Source: Centroscyllium fabricii (taxonomy: Eukaryota). From it: a DNA stretch of 64,000 nucleotides. Position 1 is the stretch's first letter. Every line of letters starts with the position of its first letter. The stretch is from the NCBI GenBank assembly GCA_051313645.2, contig JBNRSN020000011.1, positions 58,900,001-58,964,000 of the forward strand, read 5' to 3'. Below, in pieces: positions 26,801-58,797 of this stretch. The position numbers and the translations under genes were made by a program. The notes below the pieces were generated by a model. That model was not told the DNA's origin and did no database searches. It was given only the letters and a program-made list of their open reading frames with translations.

Positions 26801-27253
26801 TTGACACTGGAAATCCAGTCCCAGTAATACTGGGGCGCACAGCTGCGGGAGAATGTACAGCTTAAAATTACGGTAAGAGCGGTCCCTGATGGTGAGCGTG
26901 ACGCTGCAGTAGCCGGTGATGTCCGCCGTGTGGGACTTTGAGGCTAGGCAGATTTGGTAATGCGTGGGCTGGGTCTGCAGTGCATAGCGCCGCACTGTGT
27001 CGGGATGAATAAAGCTCTCTGTGCTACCGGTGTCGAACAGGCAGTTAGTGGCATGGCCCTCCACCTTGATCCCCATCATGGAGTTGGATAAGGCGTGCAG
27101 CCTGGCCTGATCGACTGTGGCTGAGGCCGATGTGTGTGTGTGGGGGCCCTCCGCTAGCTGGGGCCCTGTCTGGGGCGAGTGGCAAGATGGCAGCTCCAAA
27201 GATGGCGGCGCTGGCGTTTCGCACGTGTCTGGCTGTTGTTGCGGCAAAGATGG

Positions 27254-27458
27254 GCGGTGGAGGCCAGTTCATTAAACATATTCAAGAGGGAATTGGATAT
27301 ATTTCTTCAAGCTAAAGGGATTAAAGGTTATGGAGAAAAGGCGGGGACGGGGTACTAGCTTGCTAAAGATCAGCCATGATCTCATTGAATGGCGGAGCAG
27401 GCTCGAAGGGCTGAATGGCCTACTCCTGCTCCTATCTTCTATGATTCTATGATTCTAT
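27254..27458 (+). mobile_element. HER1/CR1 LINE 3' end inserted in element B
   Basis: GATCAGCCATGATCTCATTGAATGGCGGAGCAGGCTCGAAGGGCTGAATGGCCTACTCCTGCTCC followed by a (TTCTATGA)n tail. Confidence 0.9.
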
Positions 27459-27459
27459 G

Positions 27460-27840
27460 GCGGCGCCCATGAGTCGCACGCGGCTGACCGCTGAGGGTAA
27501 GATGGCGGCTGCGGCAAAGATGGCGGCGCCTGTGATTCGCATGCAGCTGGCCGCTGTGGGCAAGATGGCGGCTCCCGTGGTTCGCACGCGGCTGACCGCT
27601 GTGGGAAAGATGGCGGCGCCCGTGGTTCGCACGCGGCTGACCGCTGTGGGCAAGATGGCAGCGCCCGTGGTTTGCACGCGGCTGACCGCTGTGTGGAAGA
27701 TGGCGGCGCTGGTGGGTCGCACATGGCCGGTCGCGGTCGCGCTGAAGATGGCGGTGCCTATGCCACGTGGGCGGCTGGCCGCCGCCGTGATCTTAAAAGG
27801 GATGGCGGCGCCCGCGATTTGCACCCGGCTGACCGCTGCT
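27460..27840. repeat. 45-bp tandem repeats with AAGATGGCGGC core (element B gag-pro spacer)
   Basis: Cores at 27561, 27606, 27651, 27696 and others; 45-bp period. Confidence 0.9.
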
Positions 27841-29568: not shown

Positions 29569-30719
29569 TGGTAAATCAGAAAAACAATTGTATTCAAAAG
29601 CTTTTAAAATGTGCCTATTAGTGTCCTTGCACCTAAAAAACACCCTTAATTTAAGAGTCGTCTTGAAGGCCCATAAACAGGCACAATTAACAGAAACTCC
29701 CCATGCTGATTAATTTGATATAGGGGCGTGGCCAGTTTTGTGGGCTGGGTCCAGATTCTAGCACAATCTTTTTTGAAACCAACGCAAAGGATTGCAGAAA
29801 CTCGATTTACACTGGCCGTAATTTGCATTTGAAATTCCTTGATCTACTGTGCTGGTTTTGTTGATATTGGGAGAATTGCACTCTGAGCGGAATCTCCAGG
29901 CCCAGCCATAGAGTATCCAAACAGCTAAATGTCTCCCGTTTCCACTGTTCTCTTTTATTTGCAGCATAGAATGATTAATGGCTAATCTCTCGCTCCACCT
30001 CAATATCTGTGATGACTGTAGCTGGTTTTCACTCTTTTGTGAAAGGGAGAGGAGTTCAGCCGGAGAACATGGGGATGGATTTTAACTTCAAGTGGGTTTC
30101 GGAGTGGAGACTGCTCCACCGAATTGCTTTCCCACCCGGCAGAGGGAGCAAGAGAGTGTGCTGACTTTAACTGCCAGGCCTCATTTAAATGCCACTGGTC
30201 AACTTCCTGCCCAGAGCACACGTGAAGAGGGCACAGACTGGCTGCTGGCAGGGGATGATTGGGCAGCACTTGGTCCTCCTGGGCCCTTCTGTCTTCAGAC
30301 CAGCAGCAGTCTTGTTCCTGTCTTGCGAGAAAGCTGTATCTGCTTCCCTACTCAAAACTGCATTCAGGTCTTACTAACATAATAGGACCCCCGACTTGTA
30401 TACATTTTTGAGGCTTCAGCCTGCTTTAGGTAGGCGCCTTATCTGCCTGCAAAACCCTGCAAACAATTTGTGGTAAACCATTAATCTGCCTGTACAGAAC
30501 ATGTCTGGGCATGCCTCAGCTGGCTCCGCCCCAGGCTCCACCCCTAAGCCCAGGTAAAAAGGTGATTGACCTCCAGTCGCCCTGGCTTTAAGGATCGGTC
30601 TACCAGCAGAGGCATGCTCCTATTCTTTTGTTAATAAAAGCCTACTTGTTATAAGTTTAATTCTTAGTCTTTTGGGAGTTATTGATGGCACATCAATTTT
30701 ATTAACAAAAAGTTTTGAA

Positions 30720-33700
30720 ATGGAGCAAATCCTGAAACCAGAACGCCTGGAATTGGACCCTCAAACAGCGGATGCATCAAATTACTTTGAGCACTGGCTG
30801 AGCTGCTTCGAAGCATTCCTGCAGGCCTCCACCACTACCGTCAGGACCGAAGCTGACAAACTGCTGGTACTGAACTTACGGGTGAGCCACAAAGTATATT
30901 CGATTATCCGAGACACTGCATCCTACACGGACGCTATCGCGATACTAAAAGAACAATATACTAAGCCAGTCAACGAGGTCTACGCAAGACACCTCCTGGC
31001 TACCAGCAAACAGCAGTCTGAGGAATCAGGTGATGAATACCTATGGGCACTGAGAGTCCTTGGCCGGGCCTGCAAGTGCAAATCGGTGACGACCACAGAA
31101 AATACTGATGACCAAATCAGAGACACCTACGTCGCCGGCATCAGGTCCAGCTACACTCGACAGAGACTGCTAGAGGAAAGTTGGCTTGACCTGCAGAAGG
31201 CTGTGGTGCTTGCTAACACTCTGGACGTGGCCCTCCGAAACATGGACGCCTACCCCCCTGACAATGCGGCCCTATTCGCCCCATGGATGTCGCGGGGGCC
31301 GTCATCTTGGGACATGGTAAGGCCACAGGCCTGCGCCACGCTGCCACCGTCATGGCCCACCAGCAGCCCAACTACAGCTGCGATGTCCAGAGGCCCAAAG
31401 TGCTATTTCTGCGGCCAGGCCAAGCACCCCAGACAACACTGCCCGGCGAAGGATGCGATCTGCTCCAAATGTGGAAAGAAGGGACACTATGCCAAAGTGT
31501 GCAGGGTGAAACCGACCCCCGACATGCAGGTCACCATCTTGGACACCAATTCAATTCAATTCAATTCAATTCAATTCAATTCAAGTTTTATTGTCATTGC
31601 AGAGTACAAGTACAATACAACAAAACGAAGACTTGCTGCTCCCGAGAGTAGTGCAAATAAGTTACATATAATTTCATACAGTAAAGTACATTTCAGGTGT
31701 GCAGATACTGAAGTTTTTTGTTAGAGTTCAGGAGGCTGACAGCCCTGGGGAAGAAGCTGTTCTTGAATCTGGTCGTGCGGTTGCGGATTGATCTGTAGCA
31801 TCTCCCGGAGGGCAGAGGGGTGAACAGACTGTGGCTGTGGTGTGTGGGGTCTTTAATAATGTTCAGAGACCTCCGTAGGCAACATTTGAGGTAGGTGCGT
31901 TCGATTGACGGTAGCTGGGTGCCGGTGATTCGTTGGGCAGTTTTGACTACCCGCTGCAGGGCCATCCGGTCCGAGATGGTGCAGTTTCCATACCAGACTG
32001 TGATGCAGTTTGTCAGTATGCTTTCAATTGTGCAGCGGTAGAAGTTGGTGAGGATGCCGGATGTCAGCTTGGCCTTTTTCAGCTTCCTTAGGAATTACAG
32101 GCGCTGTTGGGCCTTCTTTTTCAGAGAGGAGGTGTTTAGTGACCAGGAGAGGTCTTCCGAGATGTGGACCCCGAGGAACTTGAAGCTGGACACCCTTTCC
32201 ACCTCAGCCCCTAACCTCGCCCACAACTGCAAAGCCATCGCAACAAAAAGCAGGCGGTACAGTGCCGGGGATAGAAGCTTAATTAAAATAGAAGTAGAGA
32301 GACTCCTGCGGGAGGGGATTATCGAGGACAGCACCAGCCCATGCGAGCCCAAGTAGTGGTCATGAAGACCAGTGCGAAACAGTGCCTGGTCATTGACTAC
32401 AGTCAAACAATCAATAGGTATACCCAATTAGACGCATACCCCCTTCCCCGCATATCTGATATGGTCAATCAGATTGCACAGTACCGGGTATTCTCTAACA
32501 CTGACCTGAAGTCGGCATACCACAACTCCCTATGAGGCCTGAAGACCGCCAATATACTGCTTTTGAGGCAAACGGCTTCCTCTACCACTTCCTCAGAGTC
32601 CCCTTCGGCATCACCAACGGGGTCTCAGACTTCCAAAGGGAGATGGACCGGATGGTTGACCAGAATGCGCTGCAGGCCACTTTTCCCTACCTGGACAATG
32701 TCACCATCTGTGGCCATGACCAGCAGGACCATGACGCCAATCTAGAAAAACTCTTCCGAACAGCCCAGCGCTTAATTTTGACATACAACAAAGAAAAGTG
32801 TATGTTTCGCACCACCCGCCTCGCTATCCTTGGCTGTGTGGTGGAAAACAGAGTCATCAGCCCCGACCCCGACCGAATGCACCCCCTTCTGGAACTACCC
32901 CTGCCTCACTGCCTCAAAGCCCTGAAGAGATATCTGGGGTTTTTCCCTTATTACGCCCAATGGGTGCCCAATTATGCGGACAAAGCCCGGCCCCTTATCA
33001 AGTCAACCTCCTTCCCACTGGCAGCAGAGGCCCATGCAGCCTTCACCCATATAAAAGAGGACATTGCAAAGGCTACAATGCACGCCGTGGATGAGTCCAT
33101 CCCTTTCCAGGTGGAGAGCGATGCGTCTGACTTTGACCTGGCCGCAACCCTTAACCAGGCGGGGAGACCCGTGGCCTTCTTTTCACGAACCCTCCAGGGC
33201 CCCGAAATTATACACTCCTCAGTTGAAAAGGAGGCCCAGGCTATAATGGAGGCTGTACGGTATTGGAGGCATTACCTGGCCGGTAAACGCTTCACCCTGC
33301 TCACTGACCAACGATCAATAGCATTTATGCTCAATAACAAGCAGAGGGGCAAAATCAAAAATGACAAGATATTGCGGTGGAGGATCAAATTGTCCACCTA
33401 CAATACGATATCTTATACCGGCCTGGTAACTTAATGAGCCCCCGGAAGCCCTATCCCGTGGAACATGTGCCAACGCGCAGGTCAATAGGCTACGGGAACC
33501 TCCACAACGATCTCTACCACCCTGGGGTCACCAGGTTTTTCCACTTCATTAAGGCCCGCAACCTGCCTTACTCCATCGAGGAGGTCAGAACCATGACCAG
33601 GAACTGCCAAGTCTGTGCCGAATGCAAACCGCACATTTATAGGCCAGACAGGGCGCACCTGATTAAAGCCACCCGCCCCTTCGAGCGCCTAAGCGTAGCT

Positions 33701-34600
33701 TTTAAAGGGCCCCTCCCCTTCTCTGACCACAACACGTACTTCCTCAACATCATTGACGAGTGCTCCCGTTTCCCGTTCGCTATCCCATGACCGGACATGA
33801 CCAGTGCCACAGTCATCAAATGTCTCAATGACCTCTTCGCCATATTCGGTTTTCCCAGCTACATCCATAGCGACAGGGGCTCGTCGTTCATGAGCAACGA
33901 GCTGTGCCAGTACCTGCTCGAAAAAGGGGTAGCCACGAGCAGGATCACCAGCTACAACCCCCAGGGTAACGGACAAGTAGAAAGGAAGAACGTGACAGTG
34001 TGGAAAACCGGCATGCTAGCCCTAAAGTCCAGAGGCCTCCCAACCCCCCGCTGGCAAGATCCTCCCCGATGCGCTTCACTCCATACGGTCACTACTCTGT
34101 ACCTCCATGACCGCCACCCCTCACGAGAAAATGTTCATCTTCCCTAGGAAATCCACCTCGGGGACATTGCTACCACCATGGTTGATGTCTCCAGGGCCCG
34201 TCTTGCTCAGGAAGCACGTGAGGAGCCATAAAACAGACCCCCTGATCAAAAGGGTCCACCTCCTCCACGCCAAACCACAATATGCATATGTGGCGTATCC
34301 TGACGGGCGGGAGGACACGGTCTCCATACGAGACCTCGCACCCTCAGGTGCCACCGAAAACACTATTACCCACTACCCATTACCATTACCCACTACCATT
34401 ACCCACGACACACCCCTAGAAGGGAATCCACACCTAACCCAAGTAGACGGCACGCCAGGGGCCTGTGACCCACCCTTATACACCTACCGACCCCGCACCC
34501 ACGAAGATGACACACTGTTGCTCCGGCCTACGTGGGAAACAGCCAAGGGAAAAGAACCGTCGCAGCCGGCACCACGACGGTCACTACGGCAGACAAGACC
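30720..34600 (+). pseudogene. Element C gag-pol, disrupted; protease region missing
   Basis: MEQILKPERLELDP gag with two Zn knuckles; RT YLDN, RNase H VESDAS and integrase in shifted frames. Confidence 0.9.
31547..32210 (-). mobile_element. 5'-truncated Rex1/Babar LINE inserted in element C
   Basis: VERVSSFKFLGVHISEDLSWS..KKAQQRL and LPSGR.YRSIR.RTTRFKNSFFP motifs; (TTGAA)n tail. Confidence 0.92.
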
Positions 34601-34933
34601 TGACGTATCGTCAATGAGGCAAAGACGAGCAGTTACCTTAACTAGAGGCTTTTATTCACTTTACAATGGAGCTACTCTCCAGTCGAACATTGAGTACAGA
34701 ATGAATGGGGGCAGGTCAGACCCCACCTATAAGGCACTCACCTGAGGGGAGGAGTTAGAGGTGTGGCTGACCTGACCTCGCGACAGTGTCGTTATACAAA
34801 ACTATGTACAATGCACCCAGCCACTATACATGCTGGTCTGTAGTGTGCTCAACTATTTACACTGGTAATCATGATTACCACATACAACCCTTCTTTGAAA
34901 ATTGAGTCCGGCGGGGTGAATGGACAGAACCTG

Positions 34934-37900
34934 TTAATGCATGGAAGGAAGAAAAACATTTTTGCATATTATTGTATGAGCCCAGCTCAACAGTTCACAA
35001 TAAGTCTCTCCGGCGGTCGTGTCTGCCTTGAGGACCGCTAGTGGCGGCGGGGCCGGGTCCTCGGGCAGCTGTGTCTGTGGTGTGGCGTCTGGTTCTTGGT
35101 CCTCGGCTGGTAGTGTCGGGGGCCTCGGTGTGTGCGTGTGCATAGGCCACGATCCGGTGGGTTGTGGTTGGTGTGTAGGCCAGTAGTCGGTAGGCAGTGG
35201 CTGGTTGGGCTGAGGCTCGACCAGGGGCTCTGCTGTGGTGCTCCCGGCGGGCGCTAGGTCCCTGATGGAAACTGTTTCCTCGCGCCCGTCCGGGAACTGC
35301 ACGTAGGTGTACTGCGGGTTGGCGTGCAGCAGCTGCACCTTTTCCACCAGGGGGTCGGTCTTATGGCTGCGGACATGTTTTCTAAGTAAGACCGGCCCCG
35401 GCATCGTGAGCCACGGTGGGAGTGCTGTCCCCGAAGTCGACTTCCTGGGAAATGAAAAGAGCAAGTCGTGAGGTGTGGCGTTGGTAGCCGTACACAGCAG
35501 AGAGCGGATGGAGTGGAGCGCGTCTGGGAGGACTGCCTGCCAACAGGACACTGGAAGGCCTCTGGACTTCAGGACCAGGCTGACCGCCTTCCAGATGATC
35601 CCGTTCTCCCTTTCTACCTGGCCGTTCCCCCGGGGGTTGTAACTGGTCGTTCTGCTTGAGGCAACACCTTTCTGAAGCAGAAACTGACGCAGTTCGTCGC
35701 TCATGAACGACGACCCCCGGTCGCTATGGATGTTGCTGGGGAGACCGAAAATGGCGAACAGCATGGTGAAGTGTTTGATCACCGTTGCGCTTGTCATATC
35801 TGGGCAGGGGAAGGCAAAGGGGAAGCGGGAGAACTCGTCTACGACCGTGAGGAAGTACGGGTTGCGGTCGGTGGAGGGGAGGGGGCCTTTGAAGTCCACG
35901 CTTAGACGTTCAAAGGGGCGGGTGGCCTTAATGAGGTGTGCCGTGTCTGGCCTGTAAAATTGGGGTTTGCACTCGGCGCAAACAGGGCACTCTCGGGTCA
36001 TAGCCTTGATCTCCGTGATGGAGTAGGGGTGGCTACGAGATTTAACGAAATGGGCAAGTCTGGTGATACCCGGGTGGCAGAGGCAATCGTGGAGTTCCTT
36101 CAGCCGGTCTAGCTGGGCACTGGCGCACGTTCCCCTGGACAGTGCGTCCGGGGGTTCATTGAGTTTGCCTGGTCGGTAAAGAATGTCATACTCGTAAGTC
36201 GAGAGCTCGATCCGCCACCGCAGGATCTTATCATTCTTGATTTTACCCTTTTGTTTATTGTTAAACATAAACGCAACTGACCGTTGGTCGGTAAAGGCCC
36301 TGTCACACCTTGACGAATTAGCTAGCGCATGCCGACGTATGCAAATTTATCTAAAACGCTGGCGTTCGCTGTGTTTTTTACAGTTTTTGGGCGTATAATA
36401 GCGTATTCATAACGAGTTGGACGTATCGTATTAGTAACGTACACAGAAAGTTTCGATAAGTTACAGATAACTTATACCAACGAATGCTTAGCGTGTTGTC
36501 GGCGTTCACAACTTATGCCCAACGATAGTCTAACTTATGCATAGCGCACGGCAGCGTTTCGCCGACGATCACGTGGCTAGACATTATCTCGACGTATTTT
36601 GACTTATGACTAACTTACAAGTAACGTGTGTCGACGTGTGTCAACGATCGCCTACCGTGCCTACAACTTATGGCCAGCGTATGCGGACGTGTGAGTCATA
36701 CGCTGGGTACGTCGAGAAATTTTGTGCATGCTCAAAATTTCTCGACTTACTCGAAGTACAACGACGTATGCCAGCATATGCCAGCGTATGCCAGCGTGCT
36801 CTTAACGTATACAAAACTTACCCATAACGTATTCGACGTGTACCAGCGTTTTCGCCAAATTTGCATACGCTGGCTAAAACGTCAAGGTGTGACAGCCCCA
36901 TGAGCAGGGTAAAACGCTTACCGGCCAGGTAATGACGCCAGTAGCGCACGGCCTCCACGATGGCCTAGGCCTCCTTTTCCACTGCAGAGTAGTGCGTTTC
37001 GGGTCCCTGTAGGGTGCGGGAGAAAAACGCTATGCGCCTGCCTGCCTGATTCAGGGTGGCGGCAAGGGCAAAGTCCGAAGCGTCACTCTCCACCTGGAAA
37101 GGGATGGACTCATCAACGGCATGCATGGTTGCCTTGATAATATCTTCCTTGATCTGGGCGAACGCCGTGTGGGCTTCTCCCGAGAGGGGGAAGACGGCAG
37201 CCTTGAGGAGCGGTCTGGCCTTATCCGCGAACTGGGGAACCCATTGCGCGTAATAGGAGAAAATTCCCAGACATCTCTTCAGGGCTTTGGGGTTGTGAGG
37301 TAAGGGCAGTTCCTGTAAGGGGTGCATACGCTGTGGGTCGGGGCCAACGACCCCGTTTTCCACTACGTATCCGAGGATGGCGAGCCGATCTGTACTAAAG
37401 ACGCACTTGTCTTTATTGTATGTGAGATCGAGCCGTTTCGCCGTGTGGAGGAATTTGGCCAGGTTGGCATCGTGGTCCTGCTGGTCATGGCCGCAGATGG
37501 TCACGTTGTCCAGGTAGGGGAAAGTGGGCTGCAACCCGTTCTGGTCAACCATACGGTCCATCTCCCTCTGGAATACCGACACTCCGTTGGTCACGCCGAA
37601 GGGGACCCGGAGGAAGTGGTAGAGCCGACCGTTCGCCTCGAAGGCGGTGTACGGGCGGTCGGCTTTCCGGATCGGGAGTTGGTGATACGCCGACTTAAGG
37701 TCGATTGTGGAGAACACCTTATACTGGGCGATCTGGTTAACCATTTCCGAGATGCGGGGAAGGGGATAGGCGTCGAGCCCGGTGTAGCGGTTAATGGTCT
37801 GGCTGTAGTCGATCACCATCCGCAGTTTCTCGCCAGTCTTAACCACTACGACCTGGGCCCGCCAGGGGCTGGTGCTGGCTTCAATTATCCCCTCCTGCAG

Positions 37901-39786
37901 CATACGCGCGACCTCCGACCTGATAAATGTCCGATCCCCTGCACTGTAACGCTGACTCTTTGTAGCAATGGGTTGGCAGTTGGGGTCGAGGTTGGCGAAC
38001 AGCGAGGGGGGGTCGACTTTCAGGGTGGATAGGCCGCAAGAAGGGCTCCGCTTTAGGAAGGGATTGTCCCGGCTACTGACGGCGAGGGGGGGTAGGGTCC
38101 CGCCGAACTCCATTGTCACGCTCTTCAGGTGGCACTGGAAATCCAGTCCCAGTAAGACTGGGGCGCACAACTGCTGGAGTATGTACAGTTTAAAGTTACA
38201 GTACACGCAGTCCCTGACTGTGAGCGTGATGGAGCAGTAGCAGGTGACGTCCGCCGTGTGGGACTTTGAAACAAGGGAAATTTGGTAGTGCATGGGCAGG
38301 GTCTGCAGTCCGTAGCGCCGCACTGTGTCGGGGTGAATGAAGCTCTCTGTGCTTCCGGTGTCGAACAGGCAGTTGGTGATATGGCCGTTAACCTTAATCC
38401 CCATCATGGAATTTGATAGGGTGTGCGGCCTAGCGTGGTCGACTGTGGCTGAGGCCGAAGTGTGTGTGCGTGTGTGGGGGCCCTCCGCTAGCTGGGGCCG
38501 TGCACAAGATGGCGGCGCACGTGATTCGCACGCGGCCGACCGCGATGGACAAGATGGCGGCGCCGGGGGGGTCGCACATGACTGGCCGCTGAAGACAAGA
38601 TGGCGGCGCCGGGGGGTCACACATGGCTGGCCGCTGAAGACAAGATGGCGGCGCCGGGGAGTCTCACATGGCCGGCCGCTGAAGACAAGATGGCGGCACC
38701 CGTGATTCGCACGCGGCGGGCCTCTGTGGATGCAGTGGCGGTGCCTGTGGTTCGCACGCGGTGGGCCGCGGTGGCTGAGTTGGTGGCGCCCGTGATTCAC
38801 ACGCAGCGGGCCGCGCTGGGCGGGATGCCGGCGTTGGGGGGTCGCCCATGGCCGGCCGCGGCCGTCTTTGGTGTGGCGGTGCCCATGCCATGTGTGCGGC
38901 CGGCCTCTGCCGTATCAGGGTGGGAGACGGGGGCGCTTGTAATCTACCCCTGGACCGCTGCTGGGTCCCGCTGCAACAGCCATGGGATGGCGTTGGAGCT
39001 CTCGCAGGCCGCGCTGTTGTGTCTGGAGCTGGGCGCTGGGGCCAATTTGCAGGCCCTGGCGTAATGTCCCTTTTTACTGCATTTCTCGCAGATCGCGGTC
39101 CTCACGGGGCATTTCGCTCGCGGATGTAGTCGCTGGCCGCAGAAGTAGCATTTTTTATCCGCTGGCAGCTTCGCAGCTGCCGCTGCCGTTGTGGGGGTCT
39201 CGACCTGTCATGGGGCCACCCAGGAGTCGAGGGTGGCTTGTGGGCCTTGGCCGCTATACGCCTCTAGTCTGTGGCGTGCTCCATCCACTGCGTTAGAGAT
39301 GGAGATCGCCTCTTCCAGCGATAAGGTCTCTTTCTCCAGCAACCGCTGGCGGGCCTGACCGGACCTGATCCCCGTCACATAGGCGTCCCGAACGAGAAGA
39401 TTCGTCTCCTCCTGCGCCGTCCGTGCCTGGCAGTCACAGGCCCGGGCGAGGGCTTGGAGCGGCAACAGATATTGTTCATTGGACTCACCGATCCGTTGTT
39501 GTCTGGTCGCCAGCACATGTCTGGCGTAGACTGAGTGGACCGGGTGCACGTAGCATGCCTCCAGTTTCTCCACGGCCTCTTTGTATGTTTTTGCGTTGCG
39601 GATGAAGGAGTATACCCGGCTGGAGATCCTGGACGAGAGAACGTGGAGTTTGTTCCCGTCGGTCGTCGCCTTGGCAGCCTCCATGTAGGCCTCGACGAGG
39701 CTGAACCAATATTCAAAAGTATTGGCGGCGTCTGGATCCTGTGGACTGACATCCAGCTTTTCGGGTTTCACAGCACCGCTCTCCAT
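34934..39786 (-). pseudogene. Element D gag-pol, disrupted by stops, frameshifts and a MITE
   Basis: MESGAVKPEKLD gag, LFDTGS, YLDN, VESDAS, HDCLCHPG, SDRG, QVERE. Confidence 0.9.
36295..36900. mobile_element. 606-bp TIR element (Harbinger-like MITE) in the RNase H region of element D
   Basis: TIR core CTGTCACACCTTGACG / CGTCAAGGTGTGACAG extending imperfectly to ~35 bp; 3-bp TSD TAA/TGA splits the LTDQR codons. Confidence 0.9.
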
Positions 39787-40683
39787 TTTAAATTTAAAGT
39801 GAATACAATTGACGTATCGTCAATGAGGCAAAGACGAGTAGTTACCTTAACTAGAGGCTTTTATTCACTTTACAATGGAGCTACTCTCCAGTACAGAATG
39901 AATGGGGGCAGGTCAGACCCCATCTATAAGGCACTCACCTGAGGGGAGGAGTTAGAGGTGTGGCTGACCTGACCTCGCGACAGTGTCGTTATACAAAACT
40001 ATGTACAATGCACCCAGCCACTATACATGCTGGTCTGTAGTGTGCTCAACTATTTACACTGGTAATCATGATTACCACAAGACCCCCAGAGAGACTTGCC
40101 TATACGTACTTCTGAGACACTTCACCCCGTCGGACTCATTTTAAACAAGGGGTGAATGTGGCAAACTACTAATCTGCCTGTACAGAATATGTCTGGGCAT
40201 GCCTCAGCTGGCTCCACCCCAGGCTCCACCCTTAAGCCCAGGTATAAAGGTGATTGACCTCCAGCCCCCCTGGCTTTAAGGATCGGTCTACCAGCAGACG
40301 CATGCTCATATTCTTTTGTTAATAAAAGCCTACTTGTTATAAGTTTAACTCTTAGTCTTTTGGGATTTATTGATGGCACATCACAATTGGAAATGTTTGG
40401 GATCAATTTTCCCTGTGAGCTACGTGGGTGCACAGCCGCGCAGCAATCGGTGAAGGAACCGCGCAAGCCGCTCATAAGCTGGCCCATTGACCATCCTGCA
40501 TTGCAAATTTAAAGATACCACACATTTAAATAAACAGGCTGTGCCCCCATGGCAACATTTAGATGGAGCATTGGTTGGGATAAGAGTGGGTCAATTAGCT
40601 GCCCATTCACCTGGTTTCCGCCAGCTGGGAAGGTTTAAAATTGACCCCTTAGTTTCATCTAAGATAGTTAGTGAGTTTCATAT

Positions 40684-42123: not shown

Positions 42124-45100
42124 TGACGTATCGTCAAGGTCTTCAATTAAAAGAGTCGACGCGTAGTTACCGAAACTAAAGGCTTTTAATTACTAAAGAA
42201 CGGAGCTACTCTCCAGATGAACTACTGTACAGGAATGGATGGAGCCTCGGTCAGAGCACACCTATATCGGGGCCTCACCTGGGGGAGGAGTCGGGGGTGT
42301 GGCTGACCTGGCTCCCAACAGAGTCACAGTAAACGGGGCTGTGCCTAACATCTGCACAGCCCATCATTAGCCATGGTGATACAGTGGTATAACAGATATA
42401 GAACGGTTACCACATTCACCCCTTCTTAAAAACTTTGAGTCCGGGGGGGGGTGAATGGATCGAACAGTTCATAATTAGTCTGTCCGGCGGTCGTGTCTGC
42501 CTGGAGGACCGCCGGCGCTCCGGTGTTGGCGGCGGTGCCTCTTGTGTCAAATGGTCCGCATCTGCCGGCGCTGTGGCTTCAGGTCGTGGTGGGCTCGGCT
42601 GGTCCCCGCCGTCCGGTTCGTAGTCAGGGAAACTCGGGGGCCATCCTGCGTCTGGTGGTTGGTCGAACTGCTGGCCAGCAGGGGGCACTGTGGTGGTGAT
42701 TCCGGCCGGGGCCAGGTCCCTGATGGACACGGTGTCCTCACGCCCGTCCGGGAACTGCACGAAGGCATAGTGCGGGTTCGCGTGTAGGAGCTGTACCTTG
42801 TCCACCAGGGGGTCCGTCTTGTGGCTCCGGACATGCCTTTTAAGCAAAACCGGCCCCGGCGTCGTCAGCCATGGAGGGAGAGCTGTCACCGAAGTCGACC
42901 TCCTGTTAAAAGAAAAAATCAGATCATGCGGGGTGGCGTTAGTGGCGGTACATAACAGTGAGCGAATAGAGTGCAGCGCATCTGGGAGGACTGCCTGCCA
43001 ATGGGACACTGGAAGGCCTCTGGACTTAAGGGCCAGGGTGACCGCCCTCCAGATGATCACATTCTCCCTTTCTACCTGGCCGTTTCCCCGGGGGTTATAA
43101 CTGGTCGTTCTGCTCGTGGCAACCCCTCTCTGGAGCAGGAACTGGCGCAGTTCATCGCTCATGAACGATGACCCCCGGTCGCTATGTATGTAGCTGGGGA
43201 GACCGAAAATGGCGAACAGCGTGGTGAAGTGTTTTATCACCGTTGCGCTCGTCATGTCTGGGCAGGGGAAGGCGAAGGGGAAGCAGGAGAACTCATCCGC
43301 TACCGTGAGGAAGTATGAGTTGCGGTCGGTGGAGGGGAGGGGGCCTTTGAAGTCCACGCTGAGACGTTCAAAGGGGCGGGTGGCCTTGATGAGGTGCGTC
43401 GTGTCTGGACGGAAAAAGTGGGGTTTGCACTCGGCGCAGACAGGGCACTCTCGGGTCATAGCCTTGATCTCCGTGATGGAGTAGGGGAGGCTACGGGATT
43501 TGACGAAATGGGCGAGTCTGGTGACACCCGGGTGGCAAAGGCGGACATGGAGGTCCTTCAGCCGGTCTAGCTGGGCACTGGCGCATGGTCCCCTGGACAG
43601 AGCGTCAGGGGGTTCGTTGAGTTTGCCTGGTCGGTAAAGAATGTCGTACTCGTATGTCGAGAGTTCGATCCGCCACCGCAGGATCTTATCATTCTTGATT
43701 TTACCCCGTTGTTTATTATTAAACATAAAGGCTACCGACCGTTGGTTGGTGAGCAGGGTAAAACGCTTACCGGCCAGGTAATGACGCCAGTAGCGCATGG
43801 CCTCCACGATGGCCTGGGCCTCCTTTTCCACTGCTGAGTGGCGAGTTTCAGGTCCCTGTAAGGTGCGGGAGAAAAACGCTACGGGCCTGCCTGCCTGATT
43901 CAGGGTGGCAGCAAGGGCGAAGTCCGAAGCGTCACTCTCCACCTGGAAAGGGATGGATTCATCAACAGCGAGCATGGTCGCCTTGATAATATCTTCCTTT
44001 ATCCTTGCGAATGCCGTTTGGGCTTCCACAGAGAGGGGGAAGACTGCAGCCTTGAGGAGTGGCCTAGCCTTATCTGCGAACTGTGGGACCCATTGTGCAT
44101 AATAGGAGAAAAATCCTAGACATCTCCTCAAGGCTTTGGGGTTGTGAGGTAGGGGCAGTTCTTGCAAGGGTCGCATACGCTGTGGGTCGGGGCCGAGGAG
44201 CCCGTTCTCCACCACATATCCGAGGATGGCGAGCCGGGCTGTATTAAAGACACATTTGTCTTTGTTATACGTGAGGTCCAGCTTAGCCGCCGTGGCGAGA
44301 AATTTGGCCAGATTGGCATCGTGGTCCTGCTGGTCATGGCCGCAGATGGTCACGTTGTCCAGGTAAGGGAAGGTGGCCTGCAAGTCGTTTTGGTCAACCA
44401 TACGGTCCATCTCCCGTTGGAACACTGACACTCTGTTGGTCACGCCAAAGGGGACCCGGAGGAAGTGGTAGAGCCGACCGTTCGCCTCGAAGGCGGTGTA
44501 GGGGCGGTCGGCTTTCCGGATCGGGAGCTGATGATACGCCGATTTAAGGTCGATCGTAGAGAACACTTTGTACTGGGCGATCTGGTTGACCATTTCTGAG
44601 ATGCGGGGAAGGTGGTAGGTGTCGAGCCCGGTGTAGCGGTTGATAGTCTGGCTGTAATCGATAACCAGCCGCTGTTTTTCACCAGACTTCACCACTACAA
44701 CTTGGGCGCGCCAGGTGCTGGTGCTGGCTTCAATTATCCCCTCCTTCAGCATCCGCCCGACCTCCGACCTGATAAACGTGCGATCCCCCTCACTGTACCG
44801 CCGACTCTTAGTGGCAATGGGTTTGCACTTCGGATCGAGGTTGGCGAACAGCGAGGGGGGGTCGATTTTCAGGGTGGAGAGGCCGCAGGCCGGGCTCCGC
44901 TTTGGGGGGAGATTGTCCCGGCTACTGACGGTGACCGGGGGTAAGGTCCCGCCGAACTCCATTGTCACACTCCTGAAGTGGCACTGGAAATCCAAACCTA
45001 GTAAGGCTGGGGCACACAACTGTTGGAGGGTATACAATTTAAAATTACGGTACACGCGCCCCTGGACGGTGAGCGTGACGGAGCAGTAGCCGGTTGCGTC

Positions 45101-46991
45101 CGCGGTGTGGGACTGTGAAGCTAGGGAGACTTGGTAGTTGGTGGGCAGGACCTGCAGTCCGCAGCGCCACACTGTATCAGGGTGAATAAAGCTCTCAGTG
45201 CTGCCTGTGTCGAAAAGGCAGTCGACAGTATGATCGTTAATGCTAATCGGTATTATTGAGTTAGACAGGGTATGGGGCCTGCCCTGGCTAACTCTGATTC
45301 TGGACGCCACAGCCCCTGCTGATCGGAGCTGTGCACAAGATGGCGCCGCCCCTGGCTCGCACATGGAGGGGCCCTGGATACAAGATGGCGTCGCCCCTGG
45401 CCCGCAGCTGGTGGGGCCCCGTATACAAGATGGCGCCGCCCCTGGCACGCACATGGAGGAGCCCTGGATACAAGATGGCGTCGCCCCTGGCCCGCAGCTG
45501 GTGGGGCCCCGTATACAAGATGGCGCCGCCCCTGGCTCGCACATGGAGGGGCTCTGGTTGCAAAATGGCATTTCTGAGGGGCCCTGTGAACGCGCTGGTG
45601 GCGCCCGTGATTCGCACGCAGCGAACCGCGGTGATCGTGTTGGCGGTGCCCGTGATTCGCACGCAGCGAACCGCGGTGGTCGGGTTGGCGGTGCCCGTGA
45701 TTCGCACGCAGCCGGCCACGTTGGGGGGTCGCGCTTGGCCGGCCTTTGCTGCATCAGGGTGGGGGATGGGAGCGCTTGTTGTTTACCCCCGTACCGTCGC
45801 TGGATCGCGCTGCTAATGCAGCTTACCTGGTCTCTGTCGGTGCTCTCACAGGCTGCACTGTTGTACCTTTTGTTAGACGCTGCTGGAGACGCTGCTGGAG
45901 ACGCTGCTGGAGCTGATTTGCAGACCTTAGCGTAGTGTCCCTTCTTTGCACATTTCTCGCAGGTCGCTGTCCTGGCTGGGCATTTCGCTCTAGGATGCAG
46001 TCCCTGGCCGCAGAAGTAACAGCGCTTTCTTTTAACGTCTTCAGTGGCTGTCGCGGCCATCGTGGGGGTCTCGGCCCGTGGCGCCCAGGTCTGGGCCTGT
46101 TGTGACGCGGCCCATATGTTACAGGCTTGCGGGTTAGTGCCGCTGTACGCCTGTAACTTTCTGCGGGCCCCCTCTACCGATTTGGCTAACGTGGTTGCCT
46201 CCTCGAGGGATAAATTGTCTCTCTCTAGTAGCCGCTGCCGGGCTTCCACACACCTCAGTCCTGTGACATAAGCGTCCCGAACGAGGAGTTCTTCCTCCTC
46301 TGCAATAGTTGTGCCTTTGCAACCACAGGCCCGTACCAGGGCCAGGAGCGCTTGCTCAAACTCCTCATTTGACTCACCCGATAGTTGAGGTCTGGTCGCC
46401 AGCACATGTCGGGCGTAGACCGAATGGACCGGGCGCATGTAGCATTTCTTTAAAATTTGTACAGTCCTTTCGTAGGTTGTGGCGTTCCTGACGAGGGTGA
46501 ATACTCTGCTGGAGATCCTAGATCGCAGGACATGTAGCATGTCCTTGTCTGTTGTAGCCTCGGCGGCTTCCATGTAGGCCTCCAGTAGGCCGAACCAGTG
46601 TTCGAAGGTAGCGGGAGCAGCAGGGTCCTGGGGACTGATGTCCAGCTTCTCAGGCTTAACGTTGCTGCTATCCATTTTAAAATAATTTAGTAATTAAAAT
46701 TGACGTAGCATCAAGGTCTTCAATTAAAAGAGTCGACGCGTAGTTACTGAAACTAAAGGCTTTTAATTACTAAAGAACGGAGCTACTCTCCAGATGAACT
46801 ACTGTACAGGAATGGATGGAGCCTCGGTCAGACCACACCTATATTGGGGCCTCACCTGGGGGAGGAGTCGGGGGTGTGGCTGACCTGGCTCCCAACAGAG
46901 TCACAGTAAACGGGGCTGTGCCTAACATCTGCACAGCCCATCATTAGCCATGGTGATACAGTGGTATAACAGATATAGAACGGTTACCACA
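42124..46991 (-). mobile_element. Gypsy element E, full-length
   Basis: 291-bp LTRs 42124-42414 and 46701-46991 (about 5 differences by eye), TSD CACCC, PPT. Confidence 0.97.
42416..46675 (-). CDS. Single-ORF Gag-Pol polyprotein (1419 aa) of element E
   Basis: Uninterrupted gag (2 Zn knuckles), protease LFDTGS, RT YLDN, RNase H, integrase HHCC/DDE. Carries probable inactivating substitutions such as TDQRS>TNQRS. Confidence 0.93.
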   Translation of the reverse strand: MDSSNVKPEKLDISPQDPAAPATFEHWFGLLEAYMEAAEATTDKDMLHVLRSRISSRVFTLVRNATTYERTVQILKKCYMRPVHSVYARHVLATRPQLSGESNEEFEQALLALVRACGCKGTTIAEEEELLVRDAYVTGLRCVEARQRLLERDNLSLEEATTLAKSVEGARRKLQAYSGTNPQACNIWAASQQAQTWAPRAETPTMAATATEDVKRKRCYFCGQGLHPRAKCPARTATCEKCAKKGHYAKVCKSAPAASPAASPAASNKRYNSAACESTDRDQVSCISSAIQRRYGGKQQALPSPTLMQQRPAKRDPPTWPAACESRAPPTRPPRFAACESRAPPTRSPRFAACESRAPPARSQGPSEMPFCNQSPSMCEPGAAPSCIRGPTSCGPGATPSCIQGSSMCVPGAAPSCIRGPTSCGPGATPSCIQGPSMCEPGAAPSCAQLRSAGAVASRIRVSQGRPHTLSNSIIPISINDHTVDCLFDTGSTESFIHPDTVWRCGLQVLPTNYQVSLASQSHTADATGYCSVTLTVQGRVYRNFKLYTLQQLCAPALLGLDFQCHFRSVTMEFGGTLPPVTVSSRDNLPPKRSPACGLSTLKIDPPSLFANLDPKCKPIATKSRRYSEGDRTFIRSEVGRMLKEGIIEASTSTWRAQVVVVKSGEKQRLVIDYSQTINRYTGLDTYHLPRISEMVNQIAQYKVFSTIDLKSAYHQLPIRKADRPYTAFEANGRLYHFLRVPFGVTNRVSVFQREMDRMVDQNDLQATFPYLDNVTICGHDQQDHDANLAKFLATAAKLDLTYNKDKCVFNTARLAILGYVVENGLLGPDPQRMRPLQELPLPHNPKALRRCLGFFSYYAQWVPQFADKARPLLKAAVFPLSVEAQTAFARIKEDIIKATMLAVDESIPFQVESDASDFALAATLNQAGRPVAFFSRTLQGPETRHSAVEKEAQAIVEAMRYWRHYLAGKRFTLLTNQRSVAFMFNNKQRGKIKNDKILRWRIELSTYEYDILYRPGKLNEPPDALSRGPCASAQLDRLKDLHVRLCHPGVTRLAHFVKSRSLPYSITEIKAMTRECPVCAECKPHFFRPDTTHLIKATRPFERLSVDFKGPLPSTDRNSYFLTVADEFSCFPFAFPCPDMTSATVIKHFTTLFAIFGLPSYIHSDRGSSFMSDELRQFLLQRGVATSRTTSYNPRGNGQVERENVIIWRAVTLALKSRGLPVSHWQAVLPDALHSIRSLLCTATNATPHDLIFSFNRRSTSVTALPPWLTTPGPVLLKRHVRSHKTDPLVDKVQLLHANPHYAFVQFPDGREDTVSIRDLAPAGITTTVPPAGQQFDQPPDAGWPPSFPDYEPDGGDQPSPPRPEATAPADADHLTQEAPPPTPERRRSSRQTRPPDRLIMNCSIHSPPPGLKVFKKG

Positions 46992-47767
46992 CACCCGCCT
47001 CCTCGGAGCTGATAAAATCCAGCCCTTTGGGTTTGTGCTGGCTCTTTGCTCGTGCAAGCCAAAATTACTCCCACTGCCCATCTATCCGATAATAATCAAA
47101 TATTTTTTCACTTTTCCCTTATGGGGGCTAATTTTACACATATAGCAGTAGAATAACTAATGCAGCCATGTGGAGCAACTCTCAAATTATTACCAAACAG
47201 GACTTCGTAAATATGGTTACATAGATGATGGTTGTTTTTGTGTTTGCCTCTTCTGGAGTTTCGGATCAGACTGGGCCTAACATCCCTGAAGAGTGTTACT
47301 TCGTAAAAGTGGTATGTGGTTTGGAAAGGGGATTGAATTAAGAGCAATGTATATTACTCGTCAAAGGTATAATATCCACATTCTTTAAATAAAGTTGTTC
47401 TCTTCAAAGTAGCTTTCTTACGTTCTTGTCCTCAGTACCGTGGCCTGGATTGAGAATGGACTTCAGTTGAGACTTTCTTAAAGACAGAATAAAGGGAAAG
47501 CAAGGTCCATTTAATCATTTGAAAGGCCTCTCCAGAGTTGCTAGAAGAGCTTTTTCCCAAGAAAAGTGGCCAGCATGGCAACCATGGTGTTAGTTTTACT
47601 TTCGAAAAATACATATAAACATATTGTGCCTGTGGCATTCAACCGTTACAGAAGACGACTACAGATCATACACAGGTGCAATACAGGGGGCAGAAAGGGG
47701 AAGTTGCAAAATGGATTGATGTGATAAAATCTTAAACGAACAAGAACCAATAAGTCCCCTTGAGACA

Positions 47768-48593: not shown

Positions 48594-49060
48594 ATAGTGG
48601 TTATGTCACTGGACTAATAATCCAGGGGCCTGAACTAATAATCTGGAGATGTGAGTTCAAACCCCACCATGGCAGCTGAGGAATTTAAATTCAGTTAATT
48701 AAATAAATCTGGAATTAAAATAAAAAGCTTGTATCAGTAATGGTGACCATGAAACTATTAGATTGTCGTAAAAACGAATTCACTGATGTCCTTTAGGGAA
48801 GGAAACCTACTACCCTTACCTGGTCTGGCCTATATGTGACTCCAGCCCCACAGCATTGTGGTTGACTCTTAACTGCCCTCTGAAATGGCCTAGCAAGCCA
48901 CTCAGTTGTACCAAACCACTACGACAAAGTCACTGAGGGAGTATCTTCATCACAGAAGACTGCAGTGGTTCAAGAAGATGGCTCACCACTACCTTCTCGA
49001 GGAGCAATTAGGGATGGGCAATAATTGCTGGCCTTGCCAGTGACATCCCACTAATGAATA
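48594..49060 (+). mobile_element. tRNA-derived SINE with LINE-like tail
   Basis: A/B-box-like TAGTGGTTA..ACTGGACT and GAGTTCAAACCCC; tail GGCTCACCAC.ACCTTCTC..GCAATTAGGGATGGGCAATAA.TGCTGGCCTTGCCAG. Confidence 0.75.
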
Positions 49061-49216
49061 CATTTTAAAAAGTAGAATGAACTAAAATAATATGCTTACT
49101 CTGAAAAATAATTTGCTTTAAAAAATATTCCTTGATATTTTTGTGTTGTAGCTTGGTAAAGTTTGATTAATACAGCTAAAAATGGGTTTGTCACATAAAT
49201 CAGCATTTTAAATCTA

Positions 49217-49510
49217 GGGGGCAATTTGGCCATCCCTGAGGAGGCAGGTTTGGAGGCGGGACTGCCGGAAAAATGGCAGAATATGGGGGCAGGTACCCAT
49301 CCTGCCTTCTTGCCATCTTCCCAGGAGGCGGGTAGCTGACCCGCGCCGGGTCCTGTCTCCTGGAGGCGGGAAGGGGATTACAGCCACTTAACTGCCTGTT
49401 AACAATCAAGGGATAATAGCGTGGGTTGGCCACAAGTCAATGGAGGCGGGACAATGACTCGACAAGCAGCAGTCCCACCTCCAACGCACCCCATTGGCAA
49501 AATCACCCCC
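49217..49510. mobile_element. ~294-bp Harbinger-type MITE
   Basis: Imperfect TIRs GGGGGCAATTTGGCCA / TGGCAAAATCACCCCC; absent from the paralogous site at ~24030. Confidence 0.72.
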
Positions 49511-54233: not shown

Positions 54234-57200
54234 TATGGTAAACCACTGTATATTGTATATAGATGTGTCCCCCTTGTGTCCCCTCCCTGTAACTGTACGT
54301 AATGCCTCCTTGCCAGGGAGGACTCACCTGGGAGGACTCCGCTCCTCGGCTTCCTTCCCAGGCTCCGCCCACTGGGTATAACAGTGAGAGCACATCTGAG
54401 TGCTCTCACTTTGGCTTGGAAGATCGTCGGACCTGTGTCCTCTTCTATGTGAATAAAAGCCTTGATTACATCTCACCATCGACTGGAGTAACTGATTGTG
54501 CATCAATTTTATTCAAGTCGGTTTTTTTTTCTACAACGAGGATGGAGAAGTTCCTGAGGCCCGAAAGACTTAATCTCGTCCCGCGATCAGCAGGCGCTGA
54601 GCGGGCCTTCACTCACTGGGTCTCCTGCTTCGAGGCCTTCCTCGTGGAATCCCGCCTGACCGTGGACACAGACCAGCGGAAGCTCAACGTCCTGCGGGCC
54701 CAGGTCAGCCCTGAGCCCTTCAGCATAATCGAGGGTGAAGCGACCTACAAGGGCACCCTGGACATCCTAAAAACTCGGTTCACCACCCCAAAGAACGAGA
54801 TCTACACCAGGCAGCTACTGTTAAACAGGAAACAACAACCTGGTGAGTCCTTAACGAACTATATGGCAGCGTTGCAAACGCTAGTGCGCGCCTGCAATTG
54901 TAGGCCGCTAACAGCTAACGAACACCAGGACATAATCCTGAGAGATGCGCTGGTGGCTGGACTCAGGTCATCCTATACGCGCCAGCGGCTGCTGGAGCAG
55001 AGCAACATAGGCCTGGCGGTGGCTGAAGCGCTAGCTGAATCGCTGGAGGCCGCACACTTGCAGAGAGAGTCCTACGACCAGCATGGGGCGTGGGCGCTGG
55101 CCCCGTGGACGGGCGAGTCGATCACCACTGCGCCCCCACTCATGACCGCGGCGGCGGCCTGACCCCAGAAGTGCTATTTCTGTGGACAGTCGAAACACCC
55201 CAGGCAGCGCTGCCCTGCTAAAGAAGCGCTGTGCTCCAGCTGCAGGAAAAAGGGACACTATGCAGCAGTCTGCAAGAGCAGACCATTCCCCTCCAGCAGC
55301 GCCGCGTGGGCTCCATCGGAGCAGCCAACTTGGGGCAACCAGCACTCACCCCCACGTGGCGAATGTGGAGGCGGCCATTTTGGATCAGACGGCCATCTTG
55401 CAGCCCCCACCCCTCCACGCGGTGAACATGGAGGCAGCCATCTTGGATCAGACGGCCATCTTGCACCAGCGCCATGCTTGCTCCCACAGGGCGGCCATCC
55501 TGGGGCCTACTCAGCCGCGTGTGACCACTGGACACCATCACGCCTGACGACAGAGCTGCCGCAGCTCGCATCGATAACGCTGGACCAGACCCGGCCCAAC
55601 CAACTGGCGCAATCAAAAATGGACATTGAGGTAAACGGCTGCACGGTTAATTGCCTTTTCGATTCGGGGAGTACCGAAAGTTTTATACATCCGGACACTG
55701 TACGGAGGCTTTCCCTCATGGTACTCCCCGCACGCCAGCGGATCCTAATGGCCTCCAACGCCGCGTCAGCGGAAGTCGGTGGCATCTGCGTAGTGACACT
55801 AAGGGTGCGGGGTACCGTGTACAACCATTTTAAACTGCTAGTCCTCCCCCACCTCTGCGCTGCCGTCCTACTGGGCCTTGACTTTCAGAGCTTCCTCGAC
55901 AGTGTCATCATGAAATACGGTGGCCCCCTTCCCCCGTTGACTGTCTGTAGCCAGCAGTTCGCGCAGCCCGAACCCCACACCATTTGCGGCCTTTCGACCC
56001 TTAAAGTCATCCCTCCCTCACTATTTGCTAACCTCACCCCCGACTGTAAGCCCATAGCTACAAAAAGCAGGCGCTACAGCACGGGGGACAGACTGTTTAT
56101 TAAGTCTGAGGTCCAGTGGCTACTGAAGGAGGGGATCATCGAGGCCAGTAACAGCCCCTGGAGAGCCCAGGTTGTAGTCGTCAAGACCGGCACCAAACCA
56201 CCGCCTGGTCATCGATTACAGCCAGACGATAAACCGTTTCACCCAATTGGACGCATACCCCCTGCCTCGCATCTCAGACATGGTCAATGAGATTGCGCAG
56301 TACAGGGTGTTCTCTACAATTGACCTTAAGTCCGCATACCATCAGCTCCCCATCCACCCTGGAGACCGCCACTTCACCGCCTTTGAGGCGAATGGCCGCC
56401 TCTACCACTTTCTGAGGGTCCCCTTCGGGGTCACCAATGGCGTGTCGGTCTTCCAGCGGGAGATGGACCGGATGGTGGACCAGAACGGGCTGCTGGCTAC
56501 CTTCCCCTACCTCGACAACATCACCATCTGTGGCCATGACATGAGGGACCACGATGCCAACCTGGCCAAATTCGTCCACACCGCCAAGCTCCTCAACCTC
56601 ACTTACAATGAGGAAAAATGCATTTTCCGCACCACCCGCCTCGCCATCCTGGGGTGCGTCGTGGCAAACGGGGTCATCGGCCCGGACCCCGAATGCATGC
56701 GCCCCCTCATGGAGCTTCCCCTCCCCCAGAGCCCAAAGACCCTGAAAAGGTGCCTGGGCTTCTTTTCGTACTACGCCCAATGGGTCCCCCAGTACGCTGA
56801 CAGAGCCCGCCCCCTCCTGAGATCCACTTCCTTCCCCCTGTCGATCGAGGCTCGTGCAGCCTTCGACAGCATCAGAGCAGCCATCGCCAAGGCGACCATG
56901 CACGCTGCGGACGAATCCGCCCCGTTCCAGGTGGAAAGTGATGCCTCTGACTTTGCCCTGGCCACCACTCTCAACCAGTCTGGACGGCCGGTAGCCTTTT
57001 TCTCCCGTACCCTCCACGGTCCCGAAATCAGGCATTCATCAGTGGAGAAGGAGGCCCAGGCCATCGTGGAAGTGGTGCGGCACTGGAGACACTACCTGGC
57101 CGGTAGAAGATTTACCCTGCTCACTGACCAGCGGTCGTGGCTTTCATGTTTAGTAACAACCAGCGGGGTAAAATCAAAAACGATAAAATCCTACGGTGGA

Positions 57201-58797
57201 GAATTGAACTGTCCACCTATAATTACGACATCTTGTACCGGCCCGGTAAACTCAATGAGCCCCCGGACGCACTATCCCGTGGAACCTGTGCCAGCGCATA
57301 AGTGGATAGACTGCAGTCCATCCACAATGACCTCTGCCACCCCGGAGTCACGCGGCTCTATCACTTCGTGAAGTCCCGCAACCTACCCAACTCCGTTTTG
57401 GACATCCGGGACATCACCGGGCACTGCCCCACCTGTGCGGAGTGCAAACCAAATTTTTCTGACCTAGCAGAGCCAGCTTGGTCAAGGCCACCCGCCCCAT
57501 TGAACGACTGAGCGTCGATTTCAAGGGCCCCCACCCCTCCACCAACAGGAACGGGTACTTCCTGACTGTGATCGATGAGTACTCACGCTTCCCCTTCGCA
57601 ATCCCTTGCCCTGACATTACCACAGCCACAACCATCAGGTGTCTGCACAGCATCTTCACCATGTTCGGCTACCCCAACTGTATTCACTCAGACAGGGGGT
57701 CGGCCTTCATGAGTGACGAGCTGCGCCAGTACCTGCTGTCCAACGGGATTGCGATGAGCAGGACCACTAGCTACAACCCCCGGGGCAACAGGCAGGTTGA
57801 ACAGGAGAACGGCACCGTCTGGAAGGCCATCAGCCCCGCCCTGCGGTCCAGGGGCCTCCCCGCCTCCCGCTGTCAGGAGGTTCTCCCAGATGCCCTCCAT
57901 TCCATCAGGTCACTGCTCTGCACCGCCACCAATGCCACCCCTCACGAGCGGATGTTTTGCTTCCCCAGGAAGTCTGCATCCGGGACCTCGCTGCCAACGT
58001 GGCTGATGTCCCCCGGGCCTGTCTTGATCCGGAAACACGTGAGGGCCCACAAGACAGACCCCCTGGTCGAGAGGGTACAGCTCCTCCACGCCAACCCCCA
58101 GTATGGCTATGTGGCATTCCCAGATGGGCGGGAGGACACGGTCTCCATTTGAGACCTCGCGCCCGCGGGCGCCCCAGAAACCATCGGCCACCGTGCCCTC
58201 ATCCCCACCCCCACCCCCACCACCGTCCCCCTTCACGAGACGCTGTCATATGGTTCCCTTATAGCTCCAGTAGATGGCAGAACGCCGGACGGACCGATGC
58301 ACGACCCCCACCCACCCACGGCGGCGCCACCACCGACTTCGGAAGACATCACGCCGACGGAGATCGAACAACCGCTGGAGACTGCACGGCCGTCGACCCC
58401 TGAAACGACGCCAAGACCCGCACTGCGACGATCGACTCGGCAGACGAGACCGCCAGATAGACTGAATATTTGACTTTGTGTAAAATCGTTCACACCCGCC
58501 TTCATTTTTTTAAACAGGGGGTGAATGTGGTAAACCACTCTATATTGTATATCGATGTCTCCCCCTTATGTCCCCTCCCTGTAACTGTACATAACGCCTC
58601 CTTGCCAGGGAGGACTCACCTGGGTGGACTCTGCTCCTCGGCTTCCTCCCCAGGCTCCGCCCACTGGGTATAAAAGTGAGAGCACACCTGAGTGCTCTCA
58701 CTTTGGCTTGGAAGATCGTCGGACCTGTGTCCTCTTCTATGTGAATAAAAGCCTCGATTACATCTCACCATCGACTGGAGTAATTGATTGTGCATCA
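54234..58797 (+). mobile_element. Gypsy element F nested in the Penelope ORF
   Basis: 272-bp LTRs 54234-54505 and 58526-58797, TSD GTGCC on both sides, PPT AGGGGGTGAA. Confidence 0.96.
54542..58473 (+). pseudogene. Element F gag-pol with stops and frameshifts
   Basis: MEKFLRPERLNL gag, LFDSGS, YLDN, VESDAS, SDRG; ends RPPDRLNI*. Confidence 0.9.

Follow-up and report, generated by a model that had tools for sequence, protein, structure and literature searches.

The locus raises the question of why a short word matching the YY1 consensus is repeated in tandem inside the coding frames of several retrotransposons, and whether it is the DNA word or the encoded peptide that is kept. The window, the whole stretch of 64,000 nucleotides that was analysed, is filled by a cluster of animal transposons, among which seven LTR elements, A to G, were delimited by self-comparison and Pfam matches:

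13367-18101, plus strand: element A, of a different Gypsy type, with a tRNA-type primer site
24113-29287, minus strand: element B, delimited by self-comparison and Pfam
30469-40383, plus strand: element C, with element D nested inside it
34601-40079, minus strand: element D, located within the 3' portion of C
42124-46996, minus strand: element E, Ty3/gypsy, with one open gag-pol frame at 42416-46693
54236-58797, plus strand: element F, delimited by self-comparison and Pfam
from about 60400 to the window end, minus strand: element G, its 5' end outside the window

The LTRs of E are 298 bp long and 97.7% identical, with a target duplication of 5 bp; across B, C, D, E and F the LTR pairs are 94-98% identical and 5-bp duplications occur in the flanks. 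Pfam matches to protease, RT, RNase H and integrase followed gag in E and G, the Ty3/gypsy domain order, and zinc knuckles were present in the gag translations of the window elements. The frame of G was uninterrupted over at least 1099 codons. The family is present in very high copy number, with 46,343 contigs matched in sequencing run X1 (four runs compared). Inspection of 40 of the 213 run-contig differences placed none in the five 45-bp cores of E, a number too small for a per-site test.

The window was scanned with the core GCCAT.TT, YY1 matching being by published consensus strings. Copies of GCCAT(C/T)TT were found in the linker between the zinc knuckles and the protease of five Ty3/gypsy elements: nine in B, five in D, six in E, four in F and three in G. 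The strict core was absent from the LTRs of these array-bearing elements, and element A had no YY1 array. The linker features were as follows:

27184-27839, minus strand: linker array of B, nine core sites at spacings of 45, 18 and 15 bp
28640-28986, plus strand: inverted copy of the B array, five core sites, motif on the sense strand of the element
31533-31541, plus strand: single degenerate site of C, ACCATCTTG, after the zinc knuckles
38504-38859, minus strand: linker array of D, five core sites at 38506-38697, preceded by homologous core-free units
45335-45569, minus strand: array of E (TRF), five 45-bp units with CGCCATCTTG and a sixth site, GCCATTTTG
45596-45712, minus strand: three homologous 45-bp units of E without the YY1 core, an internal counter-example
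45875-45912, minus strand: motif-free 12-bp in-frame tandem repeat of E, just past the second zinc knuckle
55371-55501, plus strand: linker array of F, four core sites and one degenerate site (55494)
63597-63682, minus strand: linker array of G (TRF), three 30-bp units with GCGGCCAT(C/T)TT

The arrays are real. The original prediction had placed 45-bp arrays in E, B and D and a 30-bp array in G, and TRF returned these places and periods, with 45-bp units at 27508-27722 in B and at 38510-38819 in D. For F, where about five copies had been expected, four core sites and one degenerate site were found; the repeat unit is 63 bp and holds two sites 18 bp apart. The repeat units had been taken to differ among elements; the units of B, D and E were homologous to one another and so are not independent. 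The predicted pattern, (C)AA(G/A)ATGGC(G/C)GC, matched 20 times in the window against 0.13 expected, and none of 100 dinucleotide shuffles reached 20. None of the five 45-bp sites of E fits it: three read AAGATGGCGCC and two read AAGATGGCGTC, with GCGCC or GCGTC endings. All five still fit the core CGCCAT.TT given in the available text of PMC1904287, and three are identical to the Peg3 site GGCGCCATCTT (PMC4196374, partial text). The assignment of the word to YY1 is putative and follows from consensus matching.

Sites were concentrated in the linkers. Matches to cgCCATntt, with one mismatch allowed, occurred at 7.6-16.5 per kb there versus 0-1.4 per kb in gag and pol. The ECMFinder rule, at least three such matches within 500 bp with one mismatch in the lower-case letters (PMC2665242, partial text), was passed by B, the inverted copy of B, D, E, F and G; the rule is loose, and 48975-49311, outside the LTR elements, also passed with four loose YY1-type matches. 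AAGATGG or AAAATGG lay on the strand opposite to the element at 27/27 linker sites in B, D, E, F and G. The motif had been described as always antisense, which holds for these 27 sites and fails for B as a whole, where the inverted copy in gag places it on the sense strand. Measured from the presumed RNA start in the LTR, which was judged from the pairing segment described below, the arrays are 0.9-1.9 kb away.

Two of the elements have been interrupted. The B linker array is broken at about 27260-27457 by a foreign insertion, which we take to be a LINE-like 3' end, and in C, a member of the same clade, the rest of the linker and the protease have been replaced by a foreign insertion that starts at a (CAATT)n run. 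The inverted copy in B is 347 nt long, 92% complementary to 27493-27839, in open frame and located directly after the gag start. The two inverted arms would give a long hairpin in the RNA of B.

The linker arrays are a clade-wide feature and are probably constrained as DNA, and several properties favour this view. It is favoured, first, because B, D and E read the word as P-S/F while G and F read it as G-H-L/F, the frame of G being intact. In the gag-pol frame of E the array reads APSC, TPSC and MPFC; of the APSC predicted for the motif, three copies were found, the other two reading TPSC. The open frame of F reads GHF, GHL or SHL. The predicted GHL/GHF reading of G was confirmed, as GHL, GHF and GHF in the uninterrupted frame, and in the alternative P-S/F frame of G all three sites are followed by a stop. 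Column conservation in G favours it as well: among the three units one of 11 motif columns varies, at the loose N position, compared with 14 of 19 other columns (Fisher p=0.0017). Variation in the motif generally was confined to the loose positions of YY1.

DNA-level constraint is further favoured by the agreement of the word and its flanks between lineages that are otherwise strongly diverged. Fourfold sites in pol differ at 63% between E and G (358 sites) and at 54% between E and F (125 sites), and consensus flank columns outside the search pattern agreed across B/D/E, F and G in three of four cases versus two of 18 for other columns (a hand count, p about 0.02). The codon that follows TCT or TTT of the core in B, D and E begins with T in 20/20 cases and takes all four letters at its second base; in relatives, S or F came next in 34 of 41 upstream-anchored contexts, followed by C, L, S or W in 34/34. 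A fixed first base beside a free second base again argues for constraint on the DNA. Finally, peptide contexts able to hold the core did so in 6/6 cases in the E linker, 3/3 in G and 4/6 in F, and the finding that capable peptides outside the linkers carried it in only one of 24 (four ORFs scanned) points in the same direction.

Other results temper this conclusion. When codons were resampled with linker-only usage, the excess in G was not significant (P=0.15). Every site probably traces back to a single ancestral one, and the counts taken within an array are pseudo-replicates. Core-free units have been amplified in the same linkers, making up 3/8 anchored units in E and 3/7 in D. The P-[S/F]-[C/W/L/S] frame is dominant among relatives and neighbouring C-x-x-W residues are also kept, which suggests that peptide selection contributes. 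Linkers of the outgroup already have a similar W-x-P-[T/S] peptide. The proposal that selection acts on the DNA word and not on the peptide was supported by several tests, but it falls short of proof owing to shared ancestry and pseudo-replication.

The named relatives of B-G were gene models of Hypanus, Hemitrygon, Mobula, Narcine, Scyliorhinus and Mustelus, followed by invertebrates. In a gag tree of 48 rows hand-chosen from the matches, the window elements, all named shark and ray rows and three unnamed rows fell on one branch (SH-aLRT 98). An RT tree of 23 rows agreed, with support of 99, and placed G deepest with weak support (86). At least one motif-compatible peptide was present in 38 of 39 readable clade linkers, and two or more in 31; these are peptide data. 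The count covers six named genera, Hypanus supplying 16 of the 39, together with three unnamed records, and leaves out models that are frameshifted, that skip the linker or that end before it. Since 26 of the 39 were found with a query that itself contained linkers, the gag-only-query subset is given separately: 12 of its 13 clade linkers had at least one compatible peptide and nine had two or more. Among 97 distinct in-frame outgroup linkers, scored with three peptide patterns, 17 had one compatible peptide and one had two; their median length to the protease motif was 45 residues, and clade linkers were longer.

Of ten in-frame clade linkers, six exceeded their own shuffles at P<0.05. So did all four frameshifted gene models, in which the same DNA is translated as RRHL/GGHL or AAIF/AAIL; such compensated frame changes may stem from the choice of dead copies that databases annotate. 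The Mustelus records had one site, and one Narcine record had none. A metagenome search gave 55 loci, all distant at 33-69% identity and none of the shark and ray clade; the eight linkers readable in frame had no array, seven being without a core site and one having a single site. No relative was found in the viral collection searched.

The reading that we favour, held with about even confidence, is that the arrays would act as a methylation-sensitive internal YY1 enhancer 0.9-1.9 kb downstream of the LTR promoter. It is favoured because of the YY1 consensus match, the Peg3-identical sites and the behaviour of mouse L1 monomers, in which tandem YY1 sites activate jointly and are blocked by methylation (PMC11602158, partial text); binding to the selected consensus was also methylation-sensitive in the available part of PMC1904287. 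Against it, YY1 in human promoters is most effective directly after the start site and not at a distance of 1 kb (PMC13017510, partial text). That YY1 is the protein concerned, that it would bind in vivo and that it would activate the LTR are steps that we infer.

Under this proposal, an ancestral linker of 40-60 residues between knuckle and protease would have gained one YY1 core site and then have grown by in-frame duplications that repeatedly included the site, with units of 15, 18, 30, 45 and 63 bp in the window and of 12-72 bp as judged from the peptides of relatives. A linker that tolerates any peptide could hold a DNA element of this kind. YY1 would bind the array in unmethylated copies, either freshly inserted or demethylated in the germ line, and the array would enhance the upstream LTR promoter from within the element or act as a tether for it; the LTR itself has no YY1 site. 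CpG methylation after insertion would turn the array off. More tentatively, and with distinctly less confidence than in the enhancer itself, an invertebrate-type Gypsy lineage may, on entering cartilaginous fishes, have made its linker a modular, frame-independent YY1 enhancer, re-amplified in each sub-lineage, which would have helped to drive a very large expansion and scattered methylation-gated arrays through shark and ray genomes.

The main rival to the internal enhancer is a passive coding minisatellite, in which codons for a W-x-P-P-S-type peptide close to the junction of nucleocapsid and protease happen to spell the YY1 core and a tolerant linker is amplified by slippage and template switching. 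We regard it as possible, at well below even probability. The homology of the B, D and E units, the motif-free repeats beside motif repeats, the single dominant frame among relatives, the similar peptide of the outgroup and the decay of the B array like neutral methylated DNA all speak for it. It fits poorly with G, which holds the word in another frame while other unit columns diverge, and with the near-saturated synonymous divergence between lineages. The S/F swaps at a loose position and the T-only first bases are constraints of a DNA type, not of a peptide type, and the shortest duplications, of 15 and 18 bp (B) or 18 bp (F), hold little besides the motif.

A YY1-dependent antisense promoter is improbable. 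In that case the array, whose AAGATGGC faces away from pol, would start RNA running antisense across gag and the 5' LTR and so limit expression of the element. The antisense orientation of 27/27 linker sites agrees with this, although a single orientation follows from common descent in any case. The starts of L1 are positioned by YY1, and antisense start signals occur in the mouse monomers (PMC7778262, partial text). Antisense frames of 83-228 codons run from array ATGs in B, D and E, but those of F have 3-10 codons and those of G have 6 or 87. A conserved antisense ORF was rejected, since long antisense frames occur in B, D and E only.

The base differences between the arms of B bear on methylation. 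The arms differ at 17/102 CpG bases compared with 8/235 other bases, and the B LTRs differ at 10/253 non-CpG bases, similar to the arms, which dates the inverted duplicate to about the time of insertion of B. CpG loss was 5/24 in the LTR pair of B and 5/20 in that of F, and CpG observed/expected ratios were 0.66-0.96 in linkers versus 0.64-0.96 in pol. Motif columns of the arms differed at 3/66 positions against 22/271 for others and were not clearly better kept. Since CpG loss in the B array is like that in its LTRs, inserted copies are methylated and the array provides no self-shield. Protection from methylation was consequently not supported in B, and a methylation-protected CpG island there was rejected, array CpGs having been lost at the LTR rate. 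The excess of arm differences at CpG bases, as a mark of past methylation, would accord with an array at which recruited YY1 silences the element or nucleates methylation, as in young human L1 and Peg3, where YY1 mediates methylation (PMC7778262 and PMC4196374, partial texts). This reading is very unlikely: the equal CpG loss in LTR pairs means that no local effect is needed, and a selfish element that repeatedly amplifies a silencing site is harder to explain.

Least probable of all is an RNA-level signal for packaging, originally proposed to compensate for the short leader, or for dimerisation, in that the motif is strand-fixed within gag-pol RNA but the arrays fold no better than shuffles (z-scores of +2.3 for E, +0.4 for G and +1.4 for F) and array-free relatives (L034, L035 and L009) share the short leader or the LTR pairing.

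The short leader of E has an explanation apart from the array, since the sequence after its LTR pairs with the LTR and there is no tRNA primer site:

46686-46699, minus strand: 14 nt after the 5' LTR of E, able to pair with the poly(A)-signal region of that LTR at about 46761-46774

In each of B-F, 9-14 nt after the 5' LTR pair with the AATAAA or ATTAAA region, 47-60 nt before the LTR end, and a tRNA primer site was absent. The pairing sequences differ element by element yet match, a result reached by 0-6 of 500 shuffles, and element A, of the tRNA type, showed no such pairing. The metagenome locus L009 (L009:2972) had a 16-bp post-LTR/LTR pairing and a 62-residue, motif-free linker. Seven other metagenome loci with repeats gave no post-LTR pairing match, their LTR ends being uncertain. 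The relatives L034 and L035, which have no arrays, have leaders of 8-15 nt, and the short leader is thus older than the arrays; compensation for it was not supported.

The duplex in B-F is a putative self-priming or poly(A)-masking structure in a lineage without a Pfam chromodomain. As in the self-priming Tf1/sushi elements, the stretch past the 5' LTR is complementary to part of the LTR and not to a tRNA (PMC4600332, partial text). Unlike those elements, no chromodomain was among the Pfam matches of E or G, and the paired segment in B-F covers the poly(A) signal; the likeness concerns the leader and not the YY1 array. This lineage is not described in the available portion of PMC3601003.

Eight of 42 relative gene models with a second knuckle (P0002, P0010, P0049, P0079, P0282, P0285, P0289 and P0306) jump after HFAK to downstream sequence and skip the linker, which may represent spliced gag RNA or a prediction habit. 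GT follows the HFAK position in C and E and not in B, D, F or G. A splice-acceptor reading, prompted by the CAG that comes after the motif in many units of B, D and E, was rejected: the ray peptides have no glutamine at the matching place and the spacing is not kept in G.

To our knowledge, tandem YY1 arrays have been described from non-coding DNA only, in imprinting regions and in the promoters of L1. A close likeness to the window arrays in form is the first-intron array of the Peg3-DMR, in which tandem repeats downstream of a promoter each carry GGCGCCATCTT, with about 10 sites in Peg3 and about 3-9 here (PMC4196374, partial text). Binding has been demonstrated at Peg3, whereas the present arrays are known from sequence and belong to mobile elements of a non-imprinting lineage, within their translated gag-pol frames. 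Mouse L1 Tf, whose 5' UTR monomers have one YY1 site each, likewise represents a retrotransposon that amplifies a YY1 site in tandem (PMC11602158, partial text), and, as there and at the YY1 site of human L1 (PMC7778262, partial text), the sites here contain CpG and would be methylation-sensitive. The L1 sites are in an untranslated promoter beside the start; those described here lie 0.9-1.9 kb into the coding sequence of LTR elements, on the antisense strand and in in-frame units of 15-72 bp. In the YY1 clusters of olfactory receptor genes, words also lie inside codons and the case for DNA-level selection is also statistical, but those sites are dispersed in mammalian host genes, in contrast to tandem, frame-shifting sites in a selfish element (PMC2791781, partial text).

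YY1 arrays in the coding regions of Gypsy elements, or in retrotransposons of sharks, did not turn up in a literature search that ran without most subscription journals and repeat-database entries. The one paper joining the terms shark, YY1, retrotransposon and gypsy, PMC5504073, concerns CTCF in lamprey in its available text. If the internal enhancer is correct, a retrotransposon would have turned the most tolerant part of its coding sequence into a regulatory module, kept across sharks and rays and across frames. The elements provide a natural series, with 0 to 9 sites, two frames and an inverted copy, for the effects of YY1 site number and orientation. If the minisatellite explanation holds instead, the arrays would advise caution in reading motif arrays in coding minisatellites.

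Elsewhere in the window, the LTRs of element A (13367-13647 and 17821-18101; 99.3% identical) contain three tandem TGACGTC(A/G) words, presumably CREB/ATF-like. Paired frames for a Myb/SANT protein (Myb by Pfam) and a nuclease at 6267-11633 are, we assume, Harbinger-like. Within that stretch, a 36-bp, ten-copy array without the motif lies at 6871-7232, and one exact YY1 word is present at 7344-7354.
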